The translations under genes were made by a program, and so were the position numbers. Positions 4,475 to 5,304 of a stretch of DNA of 57,698 nt are shown piece by piece. This stretch comes from Aeromonadales bacterium (lineage in GTDB: Bacteria; Pseudomonadota; Gammaproteobacteria; Enterobacterales; GCA-002770795). The first letter of the stretch is position 1, and each line of letters begins with the position of its first letter. The stretch lies in assembly GCA_011322365.1 (NCBI GenBank), contig DRNA01000005.1:1-57698 (forward strand), written 5' to 3'. The notes under the pieces were generated by a model, which ran no database searches, was not told where the DNA came from, and saw nothing but the letters and a program-made list of their open reading frames with translations.

Positions 4475-5304
4475 GTGATGTCTTTTAATGCTTCTCAAAA
4501 AATAGATATACTCACCTTTTTAAAACAAAAACATGCTCTGCCGGTGTTAGTGTTTTTAACCCTGATCAATATCATTGCTCTTCAGATATTAAATACACCA
4601 CTGAAAACCGCAGCGGCACCTGCTGGTATTGTCTCATTTGAACTGGCCGGCCAACTCCAACAATCTCTCATTATCCTGGATTCATGGCAGGGAAAAATAG
4701 CCACTATTGCGGCTCCATACCCATAATCATTTAAGATGCAGGATTTCAGCAAGAGGAGAAGCGTACAGATTCAAGGCATAAAAGTGAAGTGTTAGCCATT
4801 CTAACTTGAACTTTTATAACGCGGAAGATGTGCGCTTATCCTCTTGCCCTATGGGAGCTCAAGCAGGAAGCCAGTGCTGCGTTGCAACTTTCACTAAGGG
4901 AATAACCATTAGCTTCAAGTTACGCCTTGCTCTGACATCCTGCTTGAACTCTGAAACCTGCATCTTGAATGATTTTGGGTATAATTCTTGGTGTTGATTA
5001 CCTCTTCATCATACTCTATGCCAGTACTATCAGCCTGAGTTGCCTCTTACTCGCAAGAAAAATATCCATGGTATTTCCCCATGCAGCCAATCTGGGGATA
5101 TTCATAGCAAAAATACAAATTATCGCTGCCCTGTGCGATGCCACAGAAAATTTCGCTTTAATTCAATTATTACTCGGCTCTGATCATCCTCACTGGCCAG
5201 TAATTGCCCTATGGATGGCGCTCATTAAATTTTCCCTTATCGGTATCGGCATCCTCTACATTATTATTACTTCCCTTACTCTGCTAATCACCTCTTCTAA
5301 ATAA
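4475..5304 (+). pseudogene. Small polytopic membrane protein gene interrupted by a 266-bp inverted-repeat element
   Basis: ORFs 4475..4726 and 4969..5304 are both hydrophobic and lie in different frames. Deleting exactly 4717..4982 joins them in frame (..SWQGKIATIAAP-ILGVDYLFIILY..) into a ~187-aa membrane protein. Family not identified. Confidence 0.55.
4717..4982. mobile_element. MITE-like non-autonomous element with ~33-bp imperfect terminal inverted repeats and no coding capacity
   Basis: Left end is ATACCCATAATCATTTAAGATGCAGGATTTCAG. The reverse complement of the right end is ATACCCAAAATCATTCAAGATGCAGGTTTCAG. Two internal 14-bp stems are present: CAAGAGGAGAAGCG/CGCTTATCCTCTTG and GAGCTCAAGCAGGA/TCCTGCTTGAACTC. 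It interrupts an ORF. Confidence 0.6.

Follow-up and report, generated by a model that had tools for sequence, protein, structure and literature searches.

A probable IS630-type MITE with a co-varying two-hairpin interior interrupts a membrane-protein gene in an Aeromonadales bacterium

Bacterial MITEs are usually conserved in their ends only. Among other small mobile elements, IStrons combine a group I intron with an IS200/IS605 element, and their insertion into a gene can be harmless because of their removal from the RNA. Elements of the IS200/IS605 and REP types possess neither terminal inverted repeats nor a target duplication; they carry subterminal hairpins, and their target is a tetra- or pentanucleotide of fixed sequence located on one side.

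[quoted passage not shown] For the Correia elements the review identifies no parent transposase (PMC2229807). The folded transcript of ERIC, an element of 127 bp, was reported to affect mRNA stability in an orientation-dependent manner (bioRxiv 10.1101/2024.01.18.576219; PMC2229807). In a survey of bacterial MITEs 97-98% of the clusters were genus-specific (10.1101/2024.01.18.576219).

The window analyzed here is the whole stretch of 57,698 nucleotides of contig DRNA01000005.1 from an Aeromonadales bacterium (assembly GCA_011322365.1; host genome, G000). Two ORFs of the ORF list, 4475-4726 and 4969-5304, flank and enter an inverted-repeat element at 4717-4982. The features of the locus are the following, in window positions:

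4475..4717, plus strand: 5' part of a gene for an uncharacterised membrane protein of ~186 aa; residues 1-81 align with the N-terminal part of uninterrupted homologues of 172-208 aa.
4716..4717, no strand: target-site duplication on the left, which reads CA at present; probably TA originally, as T is found here in 33/36 genome copies and in 57/60 copies elsewhere.
4717..4749, no strand: left terminal inverted repeat, composed of ATACCC, a variable 10-nt spacer, AAGATGCA and GGATTTCAG; the bipartite end is also present on IS630-family elements.
4718..4981, no strand: MITE proper, subfamily A, from genome copies of 95-97% identity; ends from an alignment of 16 copies and an empty site in a sister species (G001).
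4749..4847, plus strand: hairpin 1, type b; internal-loop motifs CAAGGC (4772-4777) and AACGC (4818-4822); match to the covariance model R1 at 4745-4850 with 83.2 bits.
4847..4855, no strand: central mini-hairpin or junction linker CCCTATGGG; CCC-NNN-GGG kept in every lineage inspected.
4855..4951, minus strand: hairpin 2, type a; plus-strand motifs GCGTT (4879-4883) and GCCTTG (4924-4929); minus-strand match to R1 at 4851-4955 with 92.4 bits.
4952..4982, no strand: right terminal inverted repeat, from the inverted-repeat arms and conserved pairing.
4982..4983, no strand: right copy of the target-site duplication, TA, from the window sequence, the G001 empty site and flank counts.
4984..5304, plus strand: 3' part of the membrane-protein gene, from the ORF list and the homologue alignment; its ORF now begins within the right repeat, at ATG 4969.

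The terminal arms (4717-4745 and 4954-4982) comprise 29 nt each and are 90% complementary. Their pairing reaches ~33 nt, in agreement with the imperfect terminal inverted repeats of ~33 bp described in an earlier note on this DNA. The two internal stems of that description were found as well, as hairpins with arms of 23-24 nt instead of 14 bp (4749-4772/4824-4847 and 4855-4877/4929-4951). The predicted three-way junction has a folding energy of -124.8 kcal/mol, compared with -70 ± 5 kcal/mol for shuffled sequences (z of about -11 on both strands), and none of 200 shuffles of the 266-nt element folded as well. The three-way-junction-like fold suggested earlier was thereby confirmed. The element proper, TACCC...GGGTA, comprises 264 nt (4718-4981). 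It carries no transposase gene: the longest stop-free stretch of 55 members ranged from 36 to 82 aa (median 61), and a 63-aa ORF of the list (4806-4997) extends past the element end. Base for base the same insertion was found in an independently assembled hydrothermal-vent metagenome contig, which excludes an assembly artefact.

To judge from their homologues, the two ORFs are the halves of one gene. A search with the fused 187-aa protein yielded 45 relatives of 163-208 aa with a coverage of up to 95%. In the alignment with uninterrupted proteins, of 180-190 aa, the junction lies, without a gap, between the invariant residues A79 and G84. Thus, the earlier claim that exact removal of 4717..4982 (266 nt) fuses the ORFs in frame was borne out. 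At the junction Pro81 (CCA) occupies a column that contains Leu in 7/10 and Phe in 3/10 homologues. The upstream ORF ends at a TAA (4724-4726) that is supplied by the element. Since the left repeat gives this stop codon and the right repeat an ATG, two ORFs are called. Both are open and have start codons, as would be expected if they were naturally separate genes with the element merely lying between them. We attach practically no probability to this explanation, because single proteins cover nearly the whole fusion with conserved blocks on both sides of a gapless junction, and because the stop of the first ORF and the start of the second both lie within the element. Two natural orthologous genes, which the earlier note had considered as an objection to its own reading, are contradicted by these single-protein homologues.

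No second copy of the membrane-protein gene was detected in the host genome, and no orthologue in the nearest genomes searched; consequently, this locus is without a true empty site. The hexamer TATAAT, which had been proposed to face the downstream ORF, is indeed present at 4980-4985. A full sigma-70-like promoter was not confirmed: there is no -35 element at usable spacing, the promoter scan predicts none, and the downstream ORF begins at an ATG (4969) located 5' of the hexamer. Most likely, the gene was inactivated by the insertion.

According to the earlier note no direct repeat compatible with the reading frame flanks the element, and a stop codon would remain after a TA duplication. The first statement was not confirmed, and the second is wrong: a TA duplication fully agrees with restoration of the frame. 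The 264-nt element is flanked by CA (4716-4717) on the left and by TA (4982-4983) on the right. Removal of 4718-4983 (264 + 2 = 266 nt) gives GCT CCA ATT CTT GGT, which is in frame and free of stop codons, and the deletion of 4717-4982 yields the identical product. Over 96 bounded copies of the family, T was found at position -1 in 90, A at position +1 in 92 and both in 86. Thus, the element proper sits between two TA dinucleotides. The target is apparently T-W-[TA]-T-A.

The joined flanks of 35 host-genome copies were used as queries against G001, a sister species with ~80-85% nucleotide identity. Three alignments crossed the junction and represent three empty sites. The cleanest reads GGCAA[TA]AACC in G001 and GGCAAT/ATACCC...GGGTAT/AAACC in the host genome. 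The single TA of the empty site indicates a presence/absence polymorphism with a 2-bp duplication. A duplication of 4 bp (TATA) or of 3 bp is excluded by this site together with the reading frame of the window. As the homologues contain Leu or Phe where the window copy encodes Pro, the ancestral codon was probably CTA (Leu), which would restore a perfect TA. Because the left copy now reads CA, the duplication of the window copy itself is one that we infer, and a single T-to-C change in the left TA would account for its apparent absence. The membrane-protein gene is most likely a recent casualty of an ordinary TA-duplicating MITE.

The copy number, empty sites and a parent IS, for which BLASTN had been proposed earlier, could all be addressed: there were 79 BLAST matches to the 266-nt element in its own genome, the three empty sites in G001 and the IS630-family remnant on contig C227 that is described below. 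Full copies in the host genome show 95-97% identity, and a second subfamily shows 85-88%. A paired-end search yielded ~37 bounded copies. All full copies run from ATACCC to GGGTAT (16 copies aligned). Four or more subfamilies have a length of 263-266 nt, and longer forms of 310-398 nt bear extra hairpin modules. Outside the host genome the pattern ATACCC-N10-AAGATGCA-N2-3-TTTCAG was detected at more than 113 loci, in Colwellia, Thalassotalea, Catenovulum, Shewanella, Parashewanella, Photobacterium, Psychromonas, Motilimonas, Kangiella, Aliikangiella and Methylophaga. Among the pattern loci of these genera the class of 260-269 nt is again the commonest.

Several variants of the family were observed. 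Mini forms of 34-57 nt, which consist of the fused ends only, occur in the host genome at C19:8302, C126:1307-1343, C336:8923-8959, C486:4514-4547, C441:7771 and C423:797-851. One form of 37 nt is common to three of the host-genome loci, with its junction at a 4-nt GATT microhomology between the repeats, and the C486 mini copy is missing from the sister species G001. The class of ~310 nt carries an optional third hairpin of 47 nt (GCCTA-stem-TAGGTAAGG.GCGTGAGC...GGAAGCTT), whose insertion point is precisely the GCGTT^GC internal loop; this module has a co-varying stem and was seen repeatedly, in several genera. Members of this class are found in the host genome at C232:15220-15532, C45:6-315 and C141:43-352, and at the loci L047, L067, L080, L081, L097, L116 and L125. 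For 12 of 97 bounded copies the abutting flank itself reads ATACCC... or ...GGGTAT (e.g., in the host genome, C144:9133, C187:25631, C411:546 and C437:7749; elsewhere, L068, L096 and L082). Such flanks may be partial or solo ends beside full copies, resulting from insertion into the TA by an older copy or from a preference for end-like targets.

Two loci contain genes between copies. In the Gammaproteobacteria bacterium NORP105 (L080:247-2377) two copies of 309-311 nt with the same orientation and identical left flanks bracket a unit of two genes encoding proteins of 120 and 158 aa, which by eye resemble an antitoxin-toxin pair; possibly this is a composite, or else a segment that was duplicated. 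In Colwellia sp. RE-S-Sl-9 (L096:5470-6340) a cluster of genes that are tRNA-like by eye, one and then four near-identical copies, lies between two MITE copies and adjoins an IS630 element that has a frameshift and TATACCA ends.

The conservation of the fold was investigated with 55 non-identical elements, 16 from the host genome and 39 from other genera, against the reference three-way junction. Standard pairs were found in 89% of 5,606 cells, compared with 35-44% for slid partners, and both sides had changed in 75 of 103 pairs. The unpaired motifs of the element, whose positions do not change, are:

CAAGGC, at about position 55 of the element
AACGC, at about position 101
CCC-NNN-GGG, at the element centre
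GCGTT, at about position 162
GCCTTG, at about position 206

The two hairpins of each element lie on opposite strands and differ in type: one belongs to type b (CAGCAAG...TTAGTCATTCTAA), the other to type a (CAGAGY...AATGGTTATTCCCTT). The hairpins comprise ~105 nt each and have invariant CAAGGC and AACG-CAG internal loops and an apex of the type AATGGTTATTCC or TTAGTCATTCTAA. In an alignment of 50 hairpins with less than 85% identity, compensatory changes were present in 26 of the 27 consensus pairs, and 91.7% of the cells were paired, compared with 53% after shuffling and 35-43% with slid partners. The covariation score of 0.993 was reached by none of 500 shuffles. The covariation analysis suggested earlier thus gave a clear positive result, and the idea of a fold beyond a plain hairpin was upheld by this strong conservation of the internal structure. 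On the inward strand read from the nearer end, the ratio of G.T wobbles to A.C mismatches was 152:75 for hairpin 1 and, reversed, 80:111 for hairpin 2. The ratios give a modest indication that selection acts on one strand of each hairpin. Selection of the interior for single-strand folding, be it as RNA, as single-stranded DNA or as a cruciform, is well supported.

The distribution of the hairpin was followed with R1, a covariance model of this structure. It gave 72 hits in the host genome, among them a single-hairpin element and an element on contig C286 that has the core with a different terminal repeat (TATAGGGCACCTCTATTAATTG). A tandem array at C402:26143-26552 (144-553 of L178) contains at least three units on one strand, with a period of 142 nt and without terminal repeats, which means that the core also exists outside MITEs. 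Elements of Colwellia and Shewanella with ATACCA-type ends bear the same core; these ends match another IS630 copy. At E ≤ 1e-5, with E-values that are rough and find support in bit scores of 60-100 and in eight distant hits inspected by eye, R1 matched in 111 of 400 genomes sampled evenly across the Gammaproteobacteria, corresponding to 96 of 321 genera. High-GC examples showed, by eye, the same loops and junction, TA flanks and terminal repeats starting with GTGTCCTG, GTGTGGTG or GTGTAGTG. A phylum-level sample contained hits in other classes too, one with the terminal repeat TAGTACTCCGCCAA and one of the ATACCC type. Altogether, MITEs with five or more different terminal repeats were found to contain the core. 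At L195:1370-1632, from another class of the phylum, hairpin 1 of an ATACCC-type element is flipped (antisense) relative to the terminal repeat.

No matching family was obtained from Rfam 15: scanned with E-values of up to 10, the region in the window gave nothing but chance miRNA and snoRNA hits, and no hit at gathering score was obtained in 15 loci that carry family members. Integron attC sites, IHF sites and SRP RNA were discarded, as their motif order does not fit by eye; the Rfam SRP model is unmatched. BLASTN of the element found no match in E. coli genomes, plasmids or phages, literature searches found no published description of the element family or its core, and a MITE paper on Thiomargarita proved unrelated. 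The two-hairpin interior belongs to a structural cassette that is very widespread, co-varies, has apparently escaped description and is common to MITEs with different ends.

A candidate parent was found in the host genome. At position 14596 of contig C227 an end begins with TATACCCGTGATCAATGAAGATGCTTGATTT (reads TATACCCGTGATCAATGAAGATGC) and is followed by a truncated ORF of 206 aa with the domains HTH_33, HTH_29 and the start of DDE_3; this ORF matches the IS630 family transposase model NF033545 of NCBIfam with 96.7 bits. The MITE and the remnant have one end in common, TATACCC-N10-AAGATGC. C227 and the loci L157, L158 and L159 all start with TATACCCGTGAT..AAG(A/G)TG, located 5' of IS630-family transposase ORFs. 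The C227-type left end is also carried by relatives in G015 and G034, which belong to two other families of the order, and one relative was bounded as an element of ~1.1 kb. The 10-nt spacers of both ends are non-complementary in the parent, and always complementary in the MITEs. The ends of another IS630 copy, on contig C218 of the host genome (CTAAATAGCTGATCC...), are unrelated, and this copy was rejected as the parent. The only cognate transposase gene of the host genome is truncated, and a close relative of it was found in just one of 10 other MITE-bearing genomes searched; the identity of the mobiliser is therefore not certain. The shared ends point to the C227-type IS630 transposase clade as the probable mobiliser.

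From sequence alone, a TA duplication and an insertion between T and A that duplicates nothing are indistinguishable. A non-duplicating mechanism, in which, e.g., a hairpin-recognising single-strand transposase or recombinase inserts the element between T and A, would make the likeness to IS630 ends incidental. The hairpin-rich build and the strand-favoured wobbles recall single-strand elements, and the cognate transposase is missing from most MITE-bearing genomes. We nevertheless consider this mechanism improbable, because the bipartite end motif of ~25 nt matches IS630-family elements at four independent loci, because families that share the core and have other terminal repeats also lie between TA...TA, and because IS200/IS605-type elements are without long terminal inverted repeats. 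With its many copies, the T...A flanks in 86 of 96, the empty sites in G001 and a terminal repeat shared with an IS630-family transposase gene, the element is very probably a non-autonomous MITE of the IS630/Tc1-mariner type that broke the membrane-protein gene, its duplication present and decayed. Of the alternatives named in the earlier note, the MITE with a decayed duplication was thus the one retained.

The course of events for such a MITE may be pictured as follows. An IS630-family transposase acting in trans would recognise the bipartite ends TACCC ... AAGATGC. The 264-nt element would be cut out and pasted into a TA, which would be duplicated; the landing site would be the TA of a CTA (Leu) codon in the gene for the membrane protein of ~186 aa. 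The left repeat would then supply the stop codon and the right repeat the ATG, resulting in the calling of two ORFs. A later T-to-C change in the left TA would have hidden the duplication; that the insertion came first is presumed.

The other alternative of the earlier note was a structured RNA insert, similar to an intron or ribozyme, that is removed from the mRNA so that the membrane protein is still made. It had been put forward solely because a duplication seemed to be lacking. The high degree of structure of the element and its conserved unpaired motifs, the exact restoration of the frame on its removal and the location of 9 of the ~37 host-genome copies inside ORFs could be read in favor of such an insert. 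However, a precise TA-duplicating insertion restores the frame automatically. The Rfam scan that had been proposed gave no intron, ribozyme or other relevant family: no model of a group I or group II intron or of a ribozyme matches at E up to 10, and no Rfam family was found in 15 other loci. Only 2 of 60 copies in other genomes lie in ORFs, as expected if insertion into genes is harmful. Moreover, neither orientation relative to genes is preferred among the copies, the parent is a DNA transposase, and the empty sites exist at the DNA level. The alternative is left without support, and we judge RNA removal to be highly improbable. The ORF-interrupting copies, e.g., C208:6194-6456, C43:1439-1702 and C277:2536-2799, amount to about a quarter of the copies in the host genome and to 3% elsewhere. 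Their frequency, in an assembly of 497 contigs, suggests a recent burst of the MITE or relaxed selection in this vent bacterium, not tolerance through RNA removal.

The copies were also examined with respect to neighbouring genes. The intergenic contexts of the copies were 28 tandem, 15 convergent and 17 divergent, and the two orientations in co-directional contexts occurred at 10:9. These mixed contexts and orientations give no sign of a strand-specific role in host transcripts, and an RNA role tied to host genes was rejected, there being neither an enrichment at gene 3' ends nor an orientation bias. The symmetric design would make orientation irrelevant. Our best guess is that the core serves the spread of the element itself or its harmlessness, e.g., by joining the ends, by binding a host factor or by acting in read-through transcripts independently of orientation. 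It is possible, at somewhat less than even chances, that the interior of ~200 nt is an uncatalogued structured module which acts as RNA or single-stranded DNA, travels as cargo in IS630-type MITEs and interacts with one specific partner, e.g., a host protein, a nuclease or a polymerase. This module could handle read-through transcripts independently of orientation, or promote excision or synapsis. A role of this kind would account for the better conservation of the interior compared with the ends.

The pattern observed here is opposite to that of the usual bacterial MITE: the ends vary, and it is the folded interior that has been preserved, with covariation of the textbook kind, in many families and in at least two classes. 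Such a signature has earlier flagged functional structured RNAs associated with mobile elements. The core thus offers a simple test system for the use of a passenger structure to a transposon or its host. For the locus itself the outcome is a correction: the insert "without duplication" is an ordinary TA-duplicating MITE with a mutated left TA.

Compared with the described systems, the element resembles RUP in being non-coding and multi-copy, with IS630-like terminal repeats and insertion at TA; RUP is mobilised in trans. By its description, RUP is a simple stem-loop of 107 bp in one genus of Firmicutes, whereas the present element is a three-way junction of 264 nt. Unlike that of RUP, its interior shows covariation and is conserved between classes and between elements with different terminal repeats. 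With the Correia or NEMIS elements of Neisseria (PMC2229807) it shares TA termini and target duplication; the transcripts of Correia elements fold into long hairpins, and their size variants, which differ by an internal block of ~50 bp, are comparable to the optional 47-nt module found here. The Correia elements are set apart by their description as genus-restricted elements of 107/155 bp with an IHF site (PMC2229807), and, unlike the present element, they have no paired internal hairpins with invariant loops. ERIC (IRU) is, like the present element, an IS630-group MITE of Gammaproteobacteria with TA termini (MITEEc1_IS630, bioRxiv 10.1101/2024.01.18.576219; PMC2229807). In 5,426 genomes of E. 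coli (20,395 records) BLASTN found no match to the present element; consequently, it is not ERIC. An identity with IS200/IS605-type or REP elements was rejected on account of the long terminal inverted repeats and the symmetric TA flanks. In contrast to IStrons, the element matches no intron model and combines terminal inverted repeats and a TA duplication with an IS630 parent.
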